Assembly: GCA_029856435.1 (NCBI GenBank)
Contig: JAHQXB010000095.1
Coordinates: 1-19,925 of the forward strand
Source of the DNA: Candidatus Jordarchaeia archaeon
GTDB taxonomy: Archaea; Asgardarchaeota; Jordiarchaeia; Jordiarchaeales; Jordiarchaeaceae
Direction of reading: 5' to 3'
Length of the DNA: 19,925 bases
This document shows positions 696 through 17,243 of the stretch, in pieces (position 1 is the stretch's first letter; each line of letters opens with the position of its first letter). A model generated the notes under the pieces. That model did no database searches and had not been told where the DNA came from. It was given only the letters and a program-made list of their open reading frames with translations. The position numbers were made by a program, and so were the translations under genes.

Positions 696-1763
696 TTATG
701 GGAGAATTGCTTTTGCTTGCATTATTGCTGCTATGAAGTCTGTGGGGTTTACTCCAGGTGTAACTACATTTTGTTTATAGAATTGTTCAACTATTTGCTT
801 TATGGTTTGATAGTTGTATGGCGCGTCTTTAAGCATTTTTTCAAGTTGTTTTAGGGCTTGTGGGGGGTTTATGAAGAAGTCCCCGCTTATGTTTATTTCC
901 TTTATGTTGTTGTTGGATATGTTTAGGGAAACGCGTATTAGTCCTCCGGGTGCCTTGTATGCGGTTTCGTGTTCAAACTCGAGGCTGCTTCCAAAAATCC
1001 ATTCTGGGGAGCTGTACTTTTTTTGGAGTTCCCGGGCCATTTCTAGTTCTTCCGGTGTGAGCTTAGAGTCTTGGAACTCCACACCGAGAGCTTCTTGGTA
1101 TCCTTTGCGCAACGCGTTTTTCACAATACTCACGGGGATTGTTGTCCCCAGCTCCCTTCTTATTGTTGTCACTCTATCTCTGACTGAGGAGGCATTCTTG
1201 TCCCTGAGTTTTTCGGTGGGCACTGTCAGAGCATTTTCCAAATTTTCAAAGTTAAGATCCATAAGGAGGGTTCCGTGATGGATGAGAACATTGTAGAGTT
1301 GGTGCTGGGCGTTTCCAGAAATTTTTCTCTTACCTATAACAATATCATTTACGGGTTTAAACTCTGCCTCCAGTCCCAATAGTTTAAGGGCGATGATTAA
1401 ACCCCTACAGAGATACGAGTATGACTCTACGGGGTCTTTGAAGGATCTAAACTTGTTAGTGTCTATGTAGAGTGAGTAGTTTAGGTTTCCCGAATCCTGG
1501 TATACCGCCCCGCCTCCTGATAGTCTCCTCACTATTTTTATTCCTTTCTGTTTACAGTAATCTATGTTCACTTCTTTCTCCACCCGCTGGTTGCACCCTA
1601 CGCTTACAATTAGGGGGTGTTGCCACACTCGGAGAGCGTTTGGAGAATTTTTTTCCAGTATGCTTCTGGCCATGGTTTCCTCTATTGCTAAGTTCATGTA
1701 GGGGTCATCTGAACTATAGTCGATGAAGCGCCAGGACTCCTTCAAAGTCACCCCGCCCCCCAT
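696..1763 (-). CDS. lplA: Lipoate-protein ligase A with fused C-terminal LplB-type domain
   Basis: Motifs DPYMNLAIEE, RRLSGGGAVYQDSGNLNYS, NDIVIGKRKISGNAQ (catalytic Lys) and HGTLL are present. The C-terminal KAPGGLIRV...ISGDFF is the small accessory domain. Confidence 0.95.
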   Translation of the reverse strand: MGGGVTLKESWRFIDYSSDDPYMNLAIEETMARSILEKNSPNALRVWQHPLIVSVGCNQRVEKEVNIDYCKQKGIKIVRRLSGGGAVYQDSGNLNYSLYIDTNKFRSFKDPVESYSYLCRGLIIALKLLGLEAEFKPVNDIVIGKRKISGNAQHQLYNVLIHHGTLLMDLNFENLENALTVPTEKLRDKNASSVRDRVTTIRRELGTTIPVSIVKNALRKGYQEALGVEFQDSKLTPEELEMARELQKKYSSPEWIFGSSLEFEHETAYKAPGGLIRVSLNISNNNIKEINISGDFFINPPQALKQLEKMLKDAPYNYQTIKQIVEQFYKQNVVTPGVNPTDFIAAIMQAKAILP

Positions 1764-2824
1764 TATTTTATCCTTTTAATCTCTTCCCTTATAACATCTG
1801 AAAGTTCTTCAGGGGTGGGAACATTTCTTCCATATTTTAGCTCGCCGTTTACTATTACTGCGGGAATCTGGGACTTTTTAGCAGCTTCTATTAACCCGTT
1901 TGTAACAGTAACGCCCGGAGGTAAACCTCTTCCCCTTCTCCATATCCTCAATTCAATTTCTTCTTCGTTCCCAGACATTTTTATTCCCTCTTTCACATTT
2001 TTTTCTATCTGGGAACACATTTTAGTGGGGGGAGAAGCAGTCAAAACCTCTATGAGAAGTTTACCATAAGCTAGAGGTGGAGAAAACTCTAGATTCCATT
2101 TTGGAGACTGATACTTAGTTTTCAAAACCCGTTCAAAAGTGTTTTTCTCTAAATCTGTTAAACTTCCCTCAACAAGGGCGGCCCCAAATTTTTCCCTTAT
2201 CCTATGCGAAGCCTCCCCAATAAATTCTTTAATTTTCTTTTCGCTTGATGAGAGCCGTTTTAAGCTGGATACCTTTTTGGGTAGGATACCCGCAGAGTTG
2301 GCAAAATCCACGTCAATATCTAGGTAAACGACGCCCTGAAAAACTAGTACGTCATAGTACCAAAACTGTGAAACCTGAGAAATTACCACATCATCTACGA
2401 ATAGGTAAGAAGTATTATCAAAGGCACATTTTAACCCAAAATTTTCTATTGTTTCAATTAGGGGAGAGTAAACCAGCCGGTACAAATCATTTAACTCCCT
2501 TGGAAAAAAGGGGTCACGCGTATCAAGAATAAAGCCAAAGAGCAGTGAGCCTTCATCAGCGTAGAATGTTGGTCCATCAGTAACCCTCCTAATAATACTG
2601 ACGTTTTTCCCTTCCAAGAAACCCATCTGGTCTCGGTTCAACCGCAGGTTTCCCAAAACTATGGAGGGAGGACTCCTCCAAAAATGTACTGAGTTGGGTG
2701 CATCTCCACCCTTAACGTGGAGCATAATGGTTTCATCTAAAGCCCACCCCCGGCTTGGCTCAACAATGTCCTGGATGAAAAGTCTTAGTTCCCTAATTTT
2801 GGTGGCCTCCCTTAAAGTACACAC
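1763..2824 (-). CDS. Degenerate LplA/LipB-fold paralogue fused to a C-terminal thioredoxin-like domain (real start may be ATT at 2797)
   Basis: Colinear with LplA (WALDETI, PPSIVLG, IIRRVTDGPTFYADEGSL, KYQSPKWNL) but lacks GGG, ND, the catalytic Lys and HGT. The last ~99 aa (LLIEVL...TKMC...IPAVIVNGELKYGRNVPTPEEL) match the MTH895/Thioredoxin_3 pattern. Confidence 0.8.
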   Translation of the reverse strand: MCTLREATKIRELRLFIQDIVEPSRGWALDETIMLHVKGGDAPNSVHFWRSPPSIVLGNLRLNRDQMGFLEGKNVSIIRRVTDGPTFYADEGSLLFGFILDTRDPFFPRELNDLYRLVYSPLIETIENFGLKCAFDNTSYLFVDDVVISQVSQFWYYDVLVFQGVVYLDIDVDFANSAGILPKKVSSLKRLSSSEKKIKEFIGEASHRIREKFGAALVEGSLTDLEKNTFERVLKTKYQSPKWNLEFSPPLAYGKLLIEVLTASPPTKMCSQIEKNVKEGIKMSGNEEEIELRIWRRGRGLPPGVTVTNGLIEAAKKSQIPAVIVNGELKYGRNVPTPEELSDVIREEIKRIK

Positions 2825-3494
2825 ATTTATCCTTTTTACATTCTACATTATTGGAAGAAAAAGGACACTCCTCGAAATTTGAGGGTAATTTGATTTTAAA
2901 TTTTTTTTCTAAAAGGCCTATGGCGCTTTTTATAGAAGCATAAACGCTGGCTTTGCAGCACCTTGGACCCCCTAGCCTTGAAATGGAGAGTAGCGATTCA
3001 CCACTAGCATCCAAACACTCTGACCTCTCAGTATCAGACCTGTAAGTTGCTCCCGTTAGAACACTCATAGCGATTCCAACACCTGCTCCAGCCCCACACA
3101 CACCCCAGGATCCACAAGTACCATAGGGTATCCTTTTCCCCCTCTTAATGGCAATCCTAACCGCTCTGGGTGGCAAATCATAACCTACATTTTTTATGGC
3201 GGTTAACAGCACAGCGGGAACAAGGTAGTGATGAATGGGTGAATGTATGGGTATTGCAGGATGCTTCATTATTAGGTTAGCTAGTTCGTACGGATTTTTT
3301 ATTTCACTCCTCTCACAGGTTTTTAAAACTAGTTCTTCGGGAAGAGCTAACCTACAGTTCTCGCACACAAAGTGATGGTCATCACAAGTATAATCAGCCA
3401 CTGAAACCTCCTTACAGTATATGCACTTCAGCTCCTCAGAAGTTGGGTGAAGAACCTTATTGCAAATATTGCAGTAGAAAACCTCGTTCTCCAA
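2793..3494 (-). CDS. Cys-rich DUF5714-like protein (C_GCAxxG_C_C-related) with N-terminal Cys/His metal-binding region
   Basis: N-terminal CxxC, CxxC, C-x-HHFVCxxC, followed by HSPIHHYLVP, GTCGSWGVCGAGAG, GGPRCCK and a C-terminal CPF...C...C. TTG start. Confidence 0.75.
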   Translation of the reverse strand: MENEVFYCNICNKVLHPTSEELKCIYCKEVSVADYTCDDHHFVCENCRLALPEELVLKTCERSEIKNPYELANLIMKHPAIPIHSPIHHYLVPAVLLTAIKNVGYDLPPRAVRIAIKRGKRIPYGTCGSWGVCGAGAGVGIAMSVLTGATYRSDTERSECLDASGESLLSISRLGGPRCCKASVYASIKSAIGLLEKKFKIKLPSNFEECPFSSNNVECKKDKCVYFKGGHQN

Positions 3495-3643
3495 AAACAG
3501 CCCTCGACCATTTTGAATAACTTGTTAACTTATCTAGATTACCTTCTTGTTGGTTCATTGATGCAGTTCCACCCTTGAAGCATCCTTGCAAAAGTCGCCG
3601 TCGACAGTTCTTGGAAAAACGTATGAAGGAGGATGGTTTGTGG

Positions 3644-3904
3644 CTATGCTTTTAGAGCATTTTCTATTGCTTTTTCTAGGCTTTCCGGGTTGAAAAATTC
3701 AGGGAACACTTCGCTGCCATTTACCACTAGTCCTTTACTGCCGATTTTGAATTTCCTAGCCTCGTCTGAGAATGAAGGTTTTACGTCAAATTCCACTTGG
3801 TCTCGGTATTTTGTCAGTACTGCAAATACGCGATCCATGAATGCTGAGAATTGGCAGGCGCATGAACCCATGGGGATAAAAATATCTACCTTAACTTTTG
3901 ACAT
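3644..3904 (-). CDS. Small thioredoxin-fold protein with CxC motif
   Basis: 86 aa with a GGAGG SD. Pattern: beta strand VKVDIF, CAC at the helix start, then LVVNG and a C-terminal helix (ESLEKAIENAL), typical of small Trx-like proteins. Confidence 0.7.
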   Translation of the reverse strand: MSKVKVDIFIPMGSCACQFSAFMDRVFAVLTKYRDQVEFDVKPSFSDEARKFKIGSKGLVVNGSEVFPEFFNPESLEKAIENALKA

Positions 3905-4120
3905 GGAATCATTCCTCCTATTTTCTGTTTTTGTTCTGGTTTATTCACTTTTTTCACTTTTGGTCTAAACTTGTGTTTTTGGTTTGACGCCCATTAACAT
4001 AGTTTTCCTTTGTATGATATTAGTGGCGGCACCTTTTAAATATATCGACTTATAACAATATATCAATAATTTCACAGCACACCACAAAAGTGGAGAAAGG
4101 AGCAAAACTGATAAAGAAAT

Positions 4121-4483
4121 TTAGAAAATGATTACGGCTTCGCCATGTTTTAGAATTATTTTTACCAATTCGTCTTCTTCAATGGGAGTGATACCTTTTA
4201 TTATTCTTGTTTCAGGTATTTTTCTCTCCGCGAGAGATTTTTTGTGAACATACAACTCGGACTCTGGGAGAAGGGTATAGATCAAATCTTCCACACTAGG
4301 CATAGATATTTTTTCGGGGCTTTGATTTGAAATCGTAGCATATACTCCATCGCCCATAAATAGTAAAATGCATCTCAACCCACTGTTAAGGCAAGCGACA
4401 GCCACATATAGTCCACTAAAACAGTCTTCAAAGCCATAGGGCGCTTTCGTGATTATTAGCAGTACCGTGTTAATTTTAACCAC
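4121..4483 (-). CDS. dsrF: DsrF/TusC-family sulfur relay subunit (start possibly ATT at 4474)
   Basis: LLIITKAPYG, LLFMGDGVY, LYVHKKSLAER and a terminal VIIF. Adjacent to dsrE and dsrH homologues. Confidence 0.8.
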   Translation of the reverse strand: MVKINTVLLIITKAPYGFEDCFSGLYVAVACLNSGLRCILLFMGDGVYATISNQSPEKISMPSVEDLIYTLLPESELYVHKKSLAERKIPETRIIKGITPIEEDELVKIILKHGEAVIIF

Positions 4484-4488
4484 CTTCT

Positions 4489-4869
4489 CTAAAGGGCCAA
4501 CACCCTATCGCTGTTTTTGAGCCAGTGACCCAAGTCACGCAGATTAGCTATGTGAACCCCACTAACATATTGGCTGGTGGGATAAATTCCATCATTTTCC
4601 TCCCCCTCAACATAACCCCTAGCTCCCGCACACCGCGAGCAGGATTTTATTTTCGCTCCCTTCTGAGCTAGTTCACTGAGTTTTTCACCAACATTAGGAA
4701 AATATTTTGGGCTTTGCCCCTTCTTAGCAGAGTGAACCGACTCCATATAAAGAAAAATGTTAACATTGTAACCCTTTTCTAGAGCCTTCGCAGCTATTAA
4801 GAGACCAATATCCACTCTTTGAGAAGCATAAGGACCATGATATAGAACTAAGGTCAATGTCTTACTCAT
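4489..4869 (-). CDS. dsrE: DsrE/TusD-family sulfurtransferase subunit with CxxC
   Basis: GPYASQ, IFLYMESV, KSCSRCAGARG (persulfide-Cys position) and SDRVLAL. ATG at 4869 lies 6 nt after a GGTG SD. Confidence 0.9.
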   Translation of the reverse strand: MSKTLTLVLYHGPYASQRVDIGLLIAAKALEKGYNVNIFLYMESVHSAKKGQSPKYFPNVGEKLSELAQKGAKIKSCSRCAGARGYVEGEENDGIYPTSQYVSGVHIANLRDLGHWLKNSDRVLAL

Positions 4870-4878
4870 CACAATCAC

Positions 4879-5202
4879 CTAGAAGCATAGAATTCTATCC
4901 GCACTCTCCATAATATCAACTATCATCTTACCAATCAAATCATATTGACACCTCAACCTCTTTGAAAGTAAATCCTCCTGAACGCCCCGCGCCTCCAAAT
5001 CCTCCTTACTCGCAAAAACTTGAATACGCTCAGAATCAATAGTTTCCAGAGTCATTCCTCTCATCCCACAGTATACTCCATCACCAATCAAGTATACTGT
5101 AACATTAGCATCAGTTCTAATAATTTCATTTATTATGTCGAATGCTTTCGCTACCCGCTCCGAAAGTGGGGGATCAATTATGATAGAAACAACTTTCAAC
5201 AA
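4879..5202 (-). CDS. dsrH: DsrH/TusB-family sulfur relay subunit
   Basis: YLIGDGVY, FASKEDLEARGV and a terminal ADRILCF. TTG start chosen after the GGTGG SD; the ORF track starts at 5220. Confidence 0.8.
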   Translation of the reverse strand: MLKVVSIIIDPPLSERVAKAFDIINEIIRTDANVTVYLIGDGVYCGMRGMTLETIDSERIQVFASKEDLEARGVQEDLLSKRLRCQYDLIGKMIVDIMESADRILCF

Positions 5203-5357
5203 GACACTACCACCACACACTTAACTGTTCAATTTCTTTTATCCTTATTCCAACAAATCTAAAAATATCTAAGCTAACTTGCTTTATGCTCCTCTTTTTC
5301 TGACTTTAAGGTCACCTATATTAGTAAACATTCAACTTTTAAGTTTGATATGTATGT

Positions 5358-5373
5358 AAATATTATAATATTT
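5358..5373. promoter_or_regulatory. Perfect 16-bp palindrome AAATATTATAATATTT next to a TATA-like TTTATAAAAA; candidate ArsR operator in the divergent dsrH/arsR promoter
   Basis: The palindrome is read directly, with the TATA-like element at 5381-5390. It is AT-only in an AT-rich region, so chance occurrence is possible. Confidence 0.35.
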
Positions 5374-5537
5374 CGATAAGTTTATAAAAATTTTAGATTC
5401 TAAATAGTATAGAGAACACGAATTAGAAAAACACACACCATCTCAGAGCATACACAACACGCTCAAGTGTCAATTTCTGTAGGTAATACATTACTTAGGA
5501 TTAATGGTTAATCTACTCGGAATTTGGAGGTACTTTT

Positions 5538-5867
5538 TTGGAAGTTAGGAATCTAGTTATGAAAAAAAATGTTGAATTTTTAAAAGCCCTAGCAGATGAA
5601 ACAAGATTGAAAATTCTTCAGTTTTTAGGTGATAAGGAGATGTGCCAGTGTGACATTATACCTGCCATGGATAAATCGCAGTCCACGATTTCCCAGCACC
5701 TTCAAATTTTAACAAACGCGGGAGTCCTTGAGTATCGCAAAGAGGGTCAAAGAAGCCTTTACAAGTTGAAGGATGAAAGAATACGCAAAATAATCGAGTT
5801 AGTCAGCAGCATATCGAGTGATTCCCTTTTAGAAATATCTAAACTCGCAAAATCAATAGGAAGATAG
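5538..5867 (+). CDS. arsR: ArsR/SmtB-family transcriptional repressor with CxC (alpha3-type) metalloid site
   Basis: FLKALADETRLKIL, EMCQCDI (cf. ELCVCDL of As(III)-sensing ArsR), SQSTISQHLQILTNAGVL and RKEGQRSLYKL. Confidence 0.92.
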   Translation: MEVRNLVMKKNVEFLKALADETRLKILQFLGDKEMCQCDIIPAMDKSQSTISQHLQILTNAGVLEYRKEGQRSLYKLKDERIRKIIELVSSISSDSLLEISKLAKSIGR

Positions 5868-13655: not shown

Positions 13656-14387
13656 TCAAATATAGTAGTTGTTGTTTTCTGGGAAAATTTTGTTTATTGA
13701 AAGCATAAGTTTTTCGGCGGTGTCCACTTTTCCGGCACTAAGATAGCTCTGGAAAGCCCAGACATATTTATCCCTCGCCTCGTTCATTTCCCCCAACTGC
13801 TTGAAGAGCTCCCCACTTTTAAGATACATCGAAGCCGCTTCCTCATGCCGCTTCATAGAGTCTCCGTAGAGAATACCTAAGAGTCCCAGCACCACCGCCT
13901 GCTGGTACTTGTCACCAGACTCTTCACATAGTTTAAGGGCCTTTAAATAGCATTCTTCGGCAGATTGGTAATCAGCCTGCTGCCTATATGATACCCCCGC
14001 CCGCCAATAGTTCTCAGCCGCACTTCTAAAAGAGTTCAACTTCACGTAAATCTCCGCAGCAGCCACATAGCTTTCCGCCGCTTTCTCATATTTCTCCTGA
14101 ACGAAATAGTTGAACCCCAAATGGCTACAGTAGAATGAAAAACGCTCATCTTTTATACCAAGTTTCTCCAGTATAGCTACAGCCCTTGATAGGCACTCTG
14201 AAGCCTCAACACTTCTTTGAACCAATTCCAACAAGACCCCCGCTTTTGCATAGGCCTCGGCACACTTCTCCAAATCACTTGTTTGAAATTTTTCCGCTGC
14301 AGATATGTAAAGTTCAATAGCTTCCCCATATTCTCCAGAATTATGCTTATTCTCCGCAGCGGAAAAAAGCTCCTCTGCACTCTTCAA
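13656..14387 (-). CDS. TPR-repeat protein, SNAP (Sec17/alpha-SNAP)-like
   Basis: Repeated helical units: YGEAIELYISAAEKF, YEKAAESYVAAAEIY, AAENYWRAG, AEECYLKAL, HEEAASMYLKSGELF. TTG at 14387 follows GAGGCGGTGG; the ORF track starts at 14429. Confidence 0.75.
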   Translation of the reverse strand: MKSAEELFSAAENKHNSGEYGEAIELYISAAEKFQTSDLEKCAEAYAKAGVLLELVQRSVEASECLSRAVAILEKLGIKDERFSFYCSHLGFNYFVQEKYEKAAESYVAAAEIYVKLNSFRSAAENYWRAGVSYRQQADYQSAEECYLKALKLCEESGDKYQQAVVLGLLGILYGDSMKRHEEAASMYLKSGELFKQLGEMNEARDKYVWAFQSYLSAGKVDTAEKLMLSINKIFPENNNYYI

Positions 14388-14797
14388 CTGCCACCGCCTC
14401 TTTTCACACAAATAGAAAACAGTTTTCACTAAATTGCTTTCCTATTTTGAAACTAATCTAATAAATTAATGTAATTCACAAAGAACATAACGGTGAGCGA
14501 CAAATAATATGTACACCTAACGCCATAGAGGGAAAATGGAATCTTTCAAACAAGAAAAATAAAAGCAATTTCAACTGAAAACCAAAAACTACGAAGTATA
14601 ACAACCTTCTAATAGACGAAAACACTAGAGAACATATTAGGTTAAGAATAAAAACAGGTAAACCTATTTACATTCCAAGGAATAGCTTTATTGTAATTTA
14701 TTGTTTAGGGGGTTTAAGTTTACCATTTTGATACAAAACTTTTAAATCTGAATCCAGAATTAATCCATTCAAACATTTTTACCATCCGGTGAGATTT

Positions 14798-16312
14798 ATG
14801 AAATTTTCAGAAAAGTTGGGGATGCAGTATAACAATAAAATCAATGAGCACCTAGCATTTGACGATGTTGCCCTACTGCCTGGAAGGAGCGATTTTGAAC
14901 CCAGCGAAGCTGATATTTCTGTGTGGATAACTCCAGAGCACATGTTAGCTTTACCTTTTATATCCTCACCCATGGATAGGGTTACTGAAGCAGAAATGTG
15001 TATAGCTTTAGCAAGGGAGGGAGCTTTGGGAGTACTTCACAGAAACTGCCCCACACAAGTAGAAGTGGAAATGGCAAAGAAAGTTAAACGCGAGGAGATA
15101 TCGGGAATAATTAGGGATCCCCTCACAGTTACACCGGACACTCCCATCTCCACAGTGATTAGAATTATGCGTGAAAAAAATATTTCGGGGCTGCCGGTTC
15201 TGGACAGATCTGGCGACTTGGTAGGAATAATCACCAATAGAGACGTTATCACCGCTAATCCTGACGCTCCAGTAAGTTCGGAAATGACTCCCAAGGAAAA
15301 ACTGGTTACAGTCATGGAAAAGGAAATACTTCATGAAGGAAAACTTAACACAGAGAAGGTAAAGCAGTTGCTCCACCTTCACCGAATAGAAAAGCTGCTT
15401 GTTTTAGACGAACTCCGAAAACTCACCGGTCTGATAACACTCAAAGACATCAAAAGGTTGGAAGACTCACCACACGTTTCGAGAGATGCAGAGGGACGCT
15501 TAATGGTGGGAGCCGCCATAAGCCCCTTTGACCATGAAAGAGCCATAAGACTGGACCTGGTAGGAGTAGACATTTTAGTCATAGACATAGCCCACGGTAT
15601 GAACATCAATGCCTTAAAATCAGTGGAAAAAATCTCGAAGGACGTAAACGCTTTCATCATGTATGGAAATATAGCTACAGAAGAAGCAGCTCACGAGGTA
15701 ATCACAAGCGACATAAACAATCTGGCGAGTCTACGAGTAGGATTGGGAGGCGGAAGCATTTGCCAAACCACTCAAGTAACCGGAGTAGGACTAACAACCT
15801 TATCCGCCACAGCACTCGTTGCAGACGCAGTTCAGGAACACGACGCACATATAAGTGTTGTAGCAGATGGCGGAATTCGAGGAAGTGGAGACATTGCAAA
15901 AGCCATGGGTGTAGGAGCAAGTGCGGTTATGATTGGGTACCTATTTGCCGGAACAGATGAGGCACCAAGCGAGAAAGTCTATATTAGGGGAGTGCCCATG
16001 AAAAGGTACAGAGGAATGGCGTCTCCATCAGCCATTAGGGAAAGATACGCAGTAGACAGATATACCAGAGGCACCAAGAGAATAGCGGAGGGTGTAGAGG
16101 GAATGGTAACTTATAGGGGTTCTGTTAGAACACTGGTAAGGGACCTAGCAGACGCCCTCAAAGCAGCGTACGGTTACGTTGGAGCAAGAAACACCAAGGA
16201 GATGTGGGAAAAAGCACGCTACGCCAAGAGAACATGGGTGGGGTTCAGAGAAGGACTTCCACACGATATAATACCAGAATCACACGTCCAAGACATGCTA
16301 GACACCCTATAA
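14798..16312 (+). CDS. guaB: IMP dehydrogenase with CBS pair
   Basis: [18 protein letters not shown] pair (ISGLPV, VGIIT), DIAHG, GSICQT (catalytic Cys), [23 protein letters not shown] and AEGVEG. ATG at 14798 lies 6 nt after GGTG. Confidence 0.96.
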
Positions 16313-16376
16313 AAGAGAGGAGTGGTGGAACCAAATAGGAACATATTCTCCCCATGGGTGAATTTTCCCTGCTAGA

Positions 16377-17243
16377 GTGGTTATGGGAGATAAGTGTATA
16401 TTGAGGCAGGAAGAAATACTTAGAGAGTTGCTTCCTGAGGATAAGTGGCACCTAATTCCACGCAGACATGAACAGGTGGGGGATATTTGTGTATTAAGGC
16501 TCTCCCCGGAGCTGTCGGAGTTTTACCCCCAGATAGGTAAAGCGATTCTTGAGAATTATACCCATTTTCGAACTGTTGTTGTGCGGGTGGGAAATATTGC
16601 AAATGAGGAGCGTGTGGGGGAAGTGAGGGTCATTGCGGGGGAAAATAGAACTGAAACAGTCCACAGAGAATATGAGTGTAGATACAAGCTGGATTTGGCT
16701 AAGGTTTTTTTCACCCCTAGACTAAGTTATGAACATAACAGGGTAGCAAACCTAGTAAGAGAGGGGGAAGTTGTGCTAAACATGTTTTCGGGAATTGGAG
16801 CCTTCTCCATCCTGATCGCGAAAAGGGTAAGAAACTGCCGAGTTTTCTCCGTTGATATTAACCCCCTAGCCATCGAGTATCTGAAGAAAAACATTCTACT
16901 CAACCATGTTGAAGACAGGGTCATTCCCATCCTTGGAGATGCGGCACAAACCCAGGAACCAGCGTTAGCTAATCGAATAATTATGCCTCTTCCCCTCAAG
17001 GCCTACGAATATTTGAGCGTCGCAGCCCAAAAAATCGCTCCAAAGGGAACAATTCACTACTACGACACAGTAATAGCTAAGGGAGAAAGACCTCAACAGC
17101 TTGAAAGGCTATGTGAAAAGGTTACATCCAGACTCGAGGAATTGAATCTGGAAGTTGAAATTCCTTACAAGAGAAGAATAAGAAGTTTATCTCCCGGCTT
17201 TTATCTAAGCGTTCTGGACATTTTTGTAGCTAAAAAGTTTTAG
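16377..17243 (+). CDS. trm5: Trm5/Met-10+-family SAM-dependent tRNA G37 methyltransferase lacking the D1 domain
   Basis: EQVGDI, TVHREYECRYKLDLAKVFFTPRL, NMFSGIGAFSI, VDINP, RIIMPLP and IHYY. Confidence 0.85.
   Translation: MVMGDKCILRQEEILRELLPEDKWHLIPRRHEQVGDICVLRLSPELSEFYPQIGKAILENYTHFRTVVVRVGNIANEERVGEVRVIAGENRTETVHREYECRYKLDLAKVFFTPRLSYEHNRVANLVREGEVVLNMFSGIGAFSILIAKRVRNCRVFSVDINPLAIEYLKKNILLNHVEDRVIPILGDAAQTQEPALANRIIMPLPLKAYEYLSVAAQKIAPKGTIHYYDTVIAKGERPQQLERLCEKVTSRLEELNLEVEIPYKRRIRSLSPGFYLSVLDIFVAKKF

Follow-up and report, generated by a model that had tools for sequence, protein, structure and literature searches.

The 19,925-nucleotide stretch of Asgard archaeal DNA analysed here (the ‘window’) constitutes contig C17 of a metagenome-assembled genome of 3.54 Mb, which comprises 181 contigs and is 97.8% complete. 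Its closest proteins in databases bear the name Jordarchaeaceae. Between positions 696 and 5867, the window carries seven genes on the minus strand and a divergent plus-strand gene for a repressor of the ArsR/SmtB family, as judged from a listing of open reading frames (ORFs) and from family scans. Our findings support the view that these eight genes form accessory modules of an arsenic island organized around ArsR and the arsenite pump ACR3. With moderate confidence, we interpret the window as the regulator-proximal end of such an ArsR-controlled island, in which two accessory modules are combined with a proposed lipoyl-based As(III) relay. The first module would be a coupled triad of genes for a DUF5714 protein, a pseudo-lipoate ligase fused to a thioredoxin-like domain (pLplA) and a lipoate ligase (LplA), which is preceded by a gene for an 86-amino-acid thioredoxin_3-like CxC protein (Trx86). 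The second would be a trio of DsrH-, DsrE- and DsrF-like subunits (DsrHEF). The triad is also supported as a predicted single functional unit and, because relatives tie this gene set to an arsenite pump and to a dedicated lipoyl carrier, cells under arsenic stress may rely on dedicated machinery to handle lipoic acid.

A preliminary description of this DNA had reported seven co-oriented and partly overlapping genes that diverge from an ArsR with a CQC motif, and ORF coordinates and family scans bear this out. The pLplA and LplA genes have the single base 1763 in common, and the DUF5714 and pLplA genes overlap by 32 nucleotides if the start codon of the latter is GTG 2824. Likewise, dsrH and dsrE abut, and a spacing of 5 nucleotides separates dsrE from dsrF. 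In a same-genus genome, 5.2 kb of the cluster is kept at 89% DNA identity, and the gene order is kept in other lineages; the arrangement is therefore not a product of chance.

Arsenic islands in related genomes

The repressor (5538-5867, plus strand) matches PF01022 with 56 bits and NF033788 with 91.9 bits (cut-off 55). It has just two cysteines, both in the sequence MCQCD at the alpha3 position, and C-x-C-[DE] is invariant among 10 island ArsR proteins. Compared with C-x-C-x-x-C, the motif C-Q-C-D-I-I has the first two cysteines and lacks the third. We take C-Q-C-D to align with the As(III) site ELCVCDL of R773 ArsR, minus its third cysteine, and two cysteines may be sufficient for an ArsR protein to respond to As(III). 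Orthologues of this repressor adjoin an ACR3-bearing island in two relatives (G117 and G121), and the ACR3 gene of the present genome is located on another contig.

In the closed genome of the same genus (G117), the gene order is Bfr, the ArsR orthologue, Trx86, DGC, DGC, unk187, Fer4, DGC::GcvH, DGC, DGC, rSAM-SPASM and ACR3, such that Trx86 is the gene nearest to ArsR and the Bfr-ArsR anchor is the same as here. Central to this array is a cassette that encodes a GcvH-type lipoyl carrier fused to a DGC domain. The fusions (L012 8460-9341, L116 15498-16334 and L117 5319-6155) are preceded by a ferredoxin and a protein of 125-187 amino acids, and two more DGC genes follow. The DGC domain has four invariant cysteines and no solved relative by sequence. 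Its possible relationship to DsrE was considered and ruled out (hhalign probability 0.3%).

The most complete array was found in G121, where the window cluster and a counterpart of the ACR3 cluster of the present genome share one 30.5-kb contig. This contig carries DsrHEF, Trx86 and the triad (DUF5714, pLplA and LplA), then a PIN toxin-antitoxin pair, the DGC::GcvH cassette, TauE and two genes for radical SAM proteins. These are followed by another Trx86, an Fe-S protein of PF04060, ArsR, a further pLplA, another ArsR, ACR3 and an ABC transporter. Contig C56 of the present genome corresponds to the second half of this array. Its ACR3 scores 424.9 bits against TIGR00832 (cut-off 282.8), and beside it a pLplA paralogue (44% identity) sits between two ArsR genes. 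Within the genus, the pattern of presence and absence shows that the modules are separable insertions beside one conserved regulator.

More distant archaea exhibit related arrangements. In the Asgard family f31 (G319, G372, G330 and G374) and in G397, an Fe-S protein, ACR3, Trx86, ArsR, DUF5714, pLplA, LplA and the DGC::GcvH cassette all lie within 9-11 kb. Among Bathyarchaeia, the triad adjoins ACR3 (L013) or an ArsB-like transporter (L007). Some loci (L007, L139) carry the triad without a nearby cassette. The arsenic-type regulation proposed in the preliminary description thus gains support from the alpha3 CxC site, from the orthologue that heads the ACR3 island in G117, from triads that adjoin ArsR and ACR3 in further Asgard families and Bathyarchaeia, and from the occurrence of DUF5714 in ars operons (see below).

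Several additional features of these islands were recorded. A radical SAM/SPASM gene (AhbD/NirJ-like) and a gene for a B12-binding radical SAM protein (BchE/PhpK-like), both scoring below family cut-offs, reside inside the arsenic island of the Jord genus (C56, L094 7956-10818; G121, C94rc 14180-16793) and of G330, which hints at organo-arsenical or cofactor chemistry. Members of f31 encode a conserved protein of about 205 amino acids with no NCBIfam match between ArsR and DUF5714 (L117 7761-8369, L116 9951-10574 and L118 11587-12210). In another Asgard genome, G370 (L143 8232-9485), an LMWP-type ArsC is placed back to back with a short LplA, and no pseudo-ligase is present at this site.

At the left end of the window, the remnant of a small-ORF/PIN toxin-antitoxin pair (226-631) exhibits 87% identity by blastn to G121 C94rc 4762-5175, and the contig terminates here. 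The small-ORF/PIN pair, whose PIN domain was found in L012, parts the triad from the DGC cassette in G121 (L012 4815-5527). It is degraded in the window, and two same-genus assemblies break at that point. This fits a recombination-prone boundary between modules at the junction of triad and cassette. The remaining genes of the window serve housekeeping functions (aminotransferase, GHMP kinase, IMPDH, TYW2 and an EF-Tu-like GTPase).

The ligase triad, its cysteine-rich partners and the DsrHEF trio

The LplA encoded at 696-1763 (minus strand) looks active, to judge from its scores and motifs. It is matched by TIGR00545 with 283.4 bits, just above the equivalog cut-off of 280, and by PF21948 with 198.5 bits, and it carries a C-terminal accessory domain of the LplB type (PF10437, Lip_prot_lig_C, 53.2 bits; NF053749, 73.5 bits, cut-off 65). 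Both G-K-R-K-I-S-G-N-A, which includes the catalytic lysine, and RRLSGGGAVY are intact; the lysine in G-x-K-x-S-G is presumably the counterpart of E. coli K133.

Its neighbour pLplA (1763-2824, minus strand) reaches only 65 bits with PF21948 and only 52.6 bits with TIGR00545 (cut-off 280). The N-terminal domain has the fold of the LplA catalytic domain in an AlphaFold2 (AF2) model with a predicted local distance difference test (pLDDT) score of 91.8 (Foldseek E 2e-17), and superposes on Thermoplasma acidophilum LplA (2c8m/2c7i) with a template modelling score of 0.82 by target. The catalytic lysine is replaced by valine (D-V-V-I-S-Q), and RRxSGGG has become RRVTDGPTFY. A 17-row alignment (A2) revealed that the lysine is kept in just 2 of 15 members of the pLplA family and that the GGG loop is gone. 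In the AF2 model, a thioredoxin-like unit of the pattern b-a-b-a-b-b-a, with a conserved PPTxxC, makes up the C-terminal 100 residues. This domain is not of the LplB type, and its top PDB sequence match is MTH895 (E 0.064). It is also rare: only 36 clusters match among 1.84 billion representatives, about 20 of which are LplA fusions of 330-380 amino acids and about 10 of which are stand-alone proteins of about 100 amino acids. Within Asgard, its spread is patchy and island-like (14 of 400 genomes, 8 of 85 genera). Distant pLplA representatives are likewise flanked by DUF5714 and LplA.

The DUF5714 protein (2793-3494, minus strand; PF18978, 184.7 bits) belongs to a family with 15 invariant cysteines and 3 invariant histidines, which include the vicinal CC of GGPRCC (alignment A1). 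The N-terminus holds a double zinc-ribbon-like set of cysteines and histidines, and the invariant residues of the helical core are C127, C133, the vicinal pair C179-C180, C210, C219 and C224. With its AF2 model (pLDDT 90.3), Foldseek searches of the PDB gave no match at E < 1, and no solved relative was found by sequence. The best VIA comparisons were with CyuA (Z = 5.6) and L-serine dehydratase (Z = 4.4), which are both Fe-S enzymes, and these matches are weak, values below 8 not being diagnostic for helical folds.

The genomic contexts of DUF5714 were surveyed at 82 loci from many phyla of bacteria and archaea. At least one of ACR3, ArsM, ArsC and ArsB lies within 5 kb at 17 of these loci, and chance would produce about 0.2 loci at about one ACR3 per genome, a rough estimate for loci that are not independent. 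Individually, ArsR (14/82), ACR3 (13/82), ArsM (9/82; NF008823, 344 bits, cut-off 263) and LMWP-type ArsC (7/82) were encountered within this distance, and ABC transporters outrank all four as the commonest neighbours (4-5 kb). In four bacterial loci of Bacteroidota and Chloroflexota (L017, L042, L018 and L021), DUF5714 starts 1-48 nucleotides past the ACR3 stop codon, which suggests translational coupling of the two genes in these phyla. These data support an enrichment of DUF5714 in ars operons. The family adjoins LplA in five of the surveyed loci only, all of them archaeal.

Trx86 (3644-3904, minus strand) has no sequence match in Pfam, NCBIfam or the PDB. It aligns with Thioredoxin_3 proteins, but has an invariant C-x-C in place of their CxxC (alignment A5) and lacks the cis-proline, S-K-G being present instead of T-P-A. 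Its nearest look-alikes by Atlas feature similarity are archaeal proteins of about 90 amino acids (0.96) and Thioredoxin_3 clusters (0.90). Going by this similarity and its alignability only, Trx86 may adopt a thioredoxin-like fold.

The trio consists of adjacent DsrE-fold paralogues in the order H-E-F, all above Pfam cut-offs and all on the minus strand: a DsrH/TusB-like subunit (4879-5220; PF04077, 34.4 bits, cut-off 24.4), a DsrE/TusD-like subunit (4489-4878; PF02635, 72.6 bits) and a DsrF/TusC-like subunit (4121-4483; PF02635, 47.4 bits). Scores fall far under the TusBCD equivalog cut-offs (TIGR03011 for the H type, 39/49.2; TIGR03010 for the F type, 42.7/94.15; TIGR03012 for the E type, 38.4/89.25 bits). 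Both cysteines of the DsrE-type motif C-x-R-C-x-x-A-R-G are kept in all nine DsrE-type rows of alignment A4, and we take the conserved cysteine to be the equivalent of TusD Cys78. The DsrF-type subunit has no cysteine at the DsrE site, and no conserved cysteine is evident in an alignment of four DsrH-type orthologues. The DsrE subunit has few close homologues (18), and the other DsrE sets of the genome, on C160, C128 and C176, exhibit 25-37% identity.

A divergent ArsR with H-E-F recurs in three other Asgard contigs (L119, L120 and L121). It is preceded in L119 by a PF04060 Fe-S protein, lies at a contig end in L120, and is continued in L121 by Trx86, GcvH, two DGC genes, Thioredoxin_3 and the Fe-S protein. 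Neither the window nor these three contexts contain the partners DsrC/TusE, TusA or MnmA. Tracking of dsrEFH with tRNA-thiolation genes independently of lplA had been named as an observation that would speak against a lipoate-linked cluster; such genes are absent from all three contexts. DsrHEF thus goes with ArsR and the island rather than with LplA in particular. The trio is specific to certain lineages and can be parted from the ligase genes.

Two intergenic regions might hold regulatory sites. The divergent AT-rich region between dsrH and ArsR (5221-5537), a candidate operator or TATA region, contains the palindrome AAATATTATAATATTT at 5358-5373, and the 216-nucleotide gap between DsrF and Trx86 (3905-4120), a probable second promoter, contains the inverted repeat ATATAT-N12-ATATAT at 4040-4063. 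Both elements are kept in G121. The palindromes found are AT-rich and conserved between orthologous promoters only, and a TTCAA-N4-8-TTGAA box is absent from the cluster. The models of the promoter and terminator scan are bacterial, and the scan is therefore uninformative for an archaeon.

Family scans confirmed that the window has no lipoyl synthase, lipoyl carrier, sHdr, dsrAB or tusA gene, and the whole genome was searched for lipA, lipS and carrier genes. Canonical LipA and E2 (2-oxoacid dehydrogenase acyltransferase) were not found in the genome. LipS1 is present on C137 (269.9 bits, cut-off 230) and a LipS2-like gene is present on C25 (218.6 bits, under the cut-off of 270), each adjoining an LplA paralogue. 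There are also GcvP and three GcvH proteins with the lipoyl lysine, one of which is encoded beside a further LplA. Directly downstream of one GcvH is a gene for a 646-amino-acid PUA-PAPS-reductase fusion (L008 11958-13898, C32). About ten further LplA-like paralogues (23-41% identity) were identified by tblastn on C35, C137, C25, C145, C16, C101, C36, C2 and C28, and the LplA family is unusually large for one archaeal genome. Because LipS1, the LipS2-like gene, an LplA beside GcvH, and GcvP exist elsewhere, the LplA of the window is an extra, specialized copy.

A proposed lipoyl relay and its alternatives

Arsenite toxicity is classically explained by binding to dihydrolipoyl groups. We propose that the island might turn this chemistry into a defence. 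As(III) would release the CxC ArsR, and LplA would lipoylate a GcvH-type carrier, which in relatives would be the island’s own DGC::GcvH fusion. The dihydrolipoyl arm, together with Trx86 (CxC), DUF5714 (vicinal CC) and DsrE (CxRC), would bind As(III) and relay it towards ACR3. The pseudo-ligase, which keeps the lipoyl-binding fold and is predicted not to carry out adenylation, could serve as an adaptor that places the lipoyl arm beside its single-cysteine thioredoxin-like domain. We know of no ACR3 chaperone. In its most specific form, this proposal casts lipoate as a tool of arsenic defence, in which a dedicated carrier traps As(III), pLplA reads the arm, DUF5714 acts as the first known chaperone to feed ACR3, and the DsrE trio handles arsenic thiol or sulfane chemistry, for example that of thioarsenate. 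We offer this form tentatively, as a possibility with less than an even chance of being correct. The lipoyl-protein link of the preliminary description is upheld both by the apparently active LplA and by the DGC::GcvH cassette next door in relatives. Published parallels are the ligase that sHdr-LbpA systems reserve for their unusual lipoyl carrier (PMC6067878) and the response of Thioalkalivibrio DsrE/F-like genes to As(III) (PMC6620896).

The data establish which genes are present, with which motifs and folds, how they are arranged in related genomes, and that they occur together with ars genes. Several points weigh against the proposed island and relay. The window itself has no ars structural gene, and no ars gene occurs inside the 5-kb range at about 79% of the DUF5714 loci that were sampled. 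No DGC gene was found in the present assembly by hidden Markov model, tblastn or blastn searches, so the dedicated carrier is known from relatives only; its absence here may be an assembly gap, since C17 and C56 both end where relatives have the cassette. G117, which possesses the cassette and ACR3, has neither the triad nor DsrHEF, and the modules are therefore dispensable for each other. The ArsR family further includes sensors of other metals and of persulfides, and a palindrome and repeat search across the three intergenic regions of the window, the C56 promoters and their G121 orthologues revealed no operator common to different promoters. Finally, every functional step of the mechanism is read from sequence.

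The preliminary description had viewed the cluster as a stress-inducible module for lipoyl maintenance. Its link of arsenic to lipoyl groups stands, and the maintenance of lipoyl arms is indistinguishable here from the use of a dedicated carrier as a tool. Under a repair model, thioredoxin-like domains would strip As(III) from the arms of housekeeping GcvH proteins, LplA would re-lipoylate them, and DsrEFH and DUF5714 would supply sulfur. It is well established that As(III) attacks dihydrolipoamide, pLplA retains an LplA fold that could dock lipoyl arms, and the present assembly has no dedicated DGC::GcvH but three ordinary GcvH proteins and GcvP. Triads without a nearby cassette, as in L007 and L139, also fit this model. 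It is possible, most of all in this genome if the cassette is truly absent, and we nevertheless judge it unlikely overall. A dedicated carrier cassette is adjacent in most of the informative relatives, its absence here may be only apparent, and LplA paralogues already exist in the genome next to GcvH, LipS1 and the LipS2-like gene. Moreover, nothing in our analysis supports DsrEFH and DUF5714 as suppliers of sulfur to lipoate. We favour the use of lipoate as a tool over its repair because a dedicated carrier is present in relatives.

Sulfur chemistry could alternatively be the primary function. DsrHEF would then accept sulfane sulfur, for example by converting thioarsenate to arsenite for ACR3, a lipoyl carrier would present sulfur to Fe-S proteins as in the sHdr-LbpA pathway, and ArsR could sense persulfide. 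The conserved cysteines of the DsrE trio are compatible with this scheme, as are TauE-type exporters in L012, L015 and the P0170 contig, and a cassette that includes a ferredoxin and a protein without a family assignment. A precedent is the sHdr-LbpA system, in which a lipoyl carrier with a ligase of its own is found together with DsrE-type proteins (PMC6067878). Furthermore, thioarsenates dominate in sulfidic waters, and DsrE/F-like genes of Thioalkalivibrio respond to As(III) (PMC6620896). However, no sHdr, TusA or DsrC gene occurs in the window or the examined islands, the recurrent partners are ACR3, ArsM and ArsC, and the ArsR cysteines occupy the As(III)-type alpha3 site, with a score of 42 bits against the BigR model (cut-off 155). 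The sensing sites of BigR and SqrR lie away from alpha3. We thus regard a sulfane-sulfur or thioarsenate system as distinctly unlikely. Very improbable, in our estimation, is the absence of any arsenic link, whereby the cluster would be an ordinary lipoate salvage operon, or a radical-SAM-independent route to lipoyl groups with DUF5714 as Fe-S sulfur donor, controlled in either case by a generic regulator of the ArsR family. An active-looking LplA, the cysteine-rich DUF5714 with its Fe-S enzymes as weak best structural matches, and the majority of DUF5714 loci outside ars contexts would agree with this explanation. Those matches, though, fall in the range of Z that is not diagnostic, and the explanation is opposed by the syntenic ACR3 genes of at least six Asgard genomes and of Bathyarchaeia, and by the pLplA paralogue of this genome between two ArsR genes beside ACR3. 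The radical-SAM-independent route, which had been suggested earlier, is also unnecessary because LipS1 (over its cut-off) and a LipS2-like gene are in the genome, each beside an LplA paralogue.

The analysis offers three leads. A conserved set couples lipoate ligase, pseudo-ligase and cysteine proteins to ArsR and ACR3; DUF5714, which many anaerobes possess, is associated with ars genes; and the DsrE-type trio is always accompanied by a repressor of the arsenic type. If the proposed relay, in which lipoate serves arsenic defence, is correct, it would represent a new mechanism of arsenic resistance and a second non-metabolic role for lipoate after sHdr-LbpA, and it would assign a function to several orphan families.

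Comparison with known systems

ArsD, an arsenic metallochaperone, has a thioredoxin fold with Cys12, Cys13 and Cys18. Trx86 resembles it in its putative thioredoxin-like fold, in having closely spaced cysteines (CxC) without a redox CxxC or cis-proline, and in its location in ars islands, and DUF5714 does so in its invariant vicinal CC and its frequent location immediately behind ACR3. Sequence similarity to ArsD is absent, as is an ArsA partner, and the likeness is one of motif and position. The bipartite LplA/LplB of T. acidophilum (2c8m, 3r07) shares with the window the fold of the pLplA N-terminal domain and the use of a two-gene ligase pair with overlapping genes. The partner here is not LplB, but a second LplA-fold domain without the catalytic lysine that is joined to a monothiol thioredoxin-like domain.

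Like the DsrEFH/TusBCD heterohexamer, the trio comprises three adjacent DsrE-fold paralogues, of which the DsrE type keeps its active-site cysteine and the F type does not. It differs in its H-E-F order, its sub-cut-off scores, the extra cysteine (CxRC) and a DsrH without a conserved cysteine, and in being paired always with ArsR and never with a DsrC, TusE or TusA partner. In the sHdr-LbpA pathway of sulfur oxidation, LplA-like ligases are reserved for a lipoyl carrier that is not a canonical one (Cao et al. 2018, PMC6067878). Shared features are a GcvH-like carrier outside central metabolism, an LplA-type ligase beside the carrier and DsrE-family proteins in the locus. The window and the islands read have no sHdr, TusA or LipT; LipS1 and the LipS2-like gene of this genome lie apart, on C137 and C25, and the partners are instead ArsR, ACR3, DGC-domain proteins and DUF5714, together with a pLplA-Trx fusion that has no counterpart.

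Canonical ars operons (ArsR, ACR3/ArsB, ArsC, ArsD/ArsA, ArsM and MTH895/ArsE-type thioredoxin-like proteins) have in common with the island an ArsR of the alpha3 CxC type, ACR3 (in the island of relatives and on C56) and small cysteine proteins with a putative thioredoxin fold, and DUF5714 recurs with their ACR3, ArsM and ArsC. To our knowledge, no ars system contains lipoate machinery. Our literature search likewise found no description of a lipoate ligase, pseudo-ligase, DsrE trio or DGC-fused lipoyl carrier as an ars component, and no paper on DUF5714 or on a module of lipoate ligase, GcvH or DGC in ars loci, Asgard included, in agreement with the earlier remark that the combination is not a described pathway. 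ArsC, ArsD and ArsA are missing from the island, which carries LplA and pLplA, the DsrHEF trio and, in relatives, the fusion of a lipoyl carrier with a four-cysteine DGC domain.

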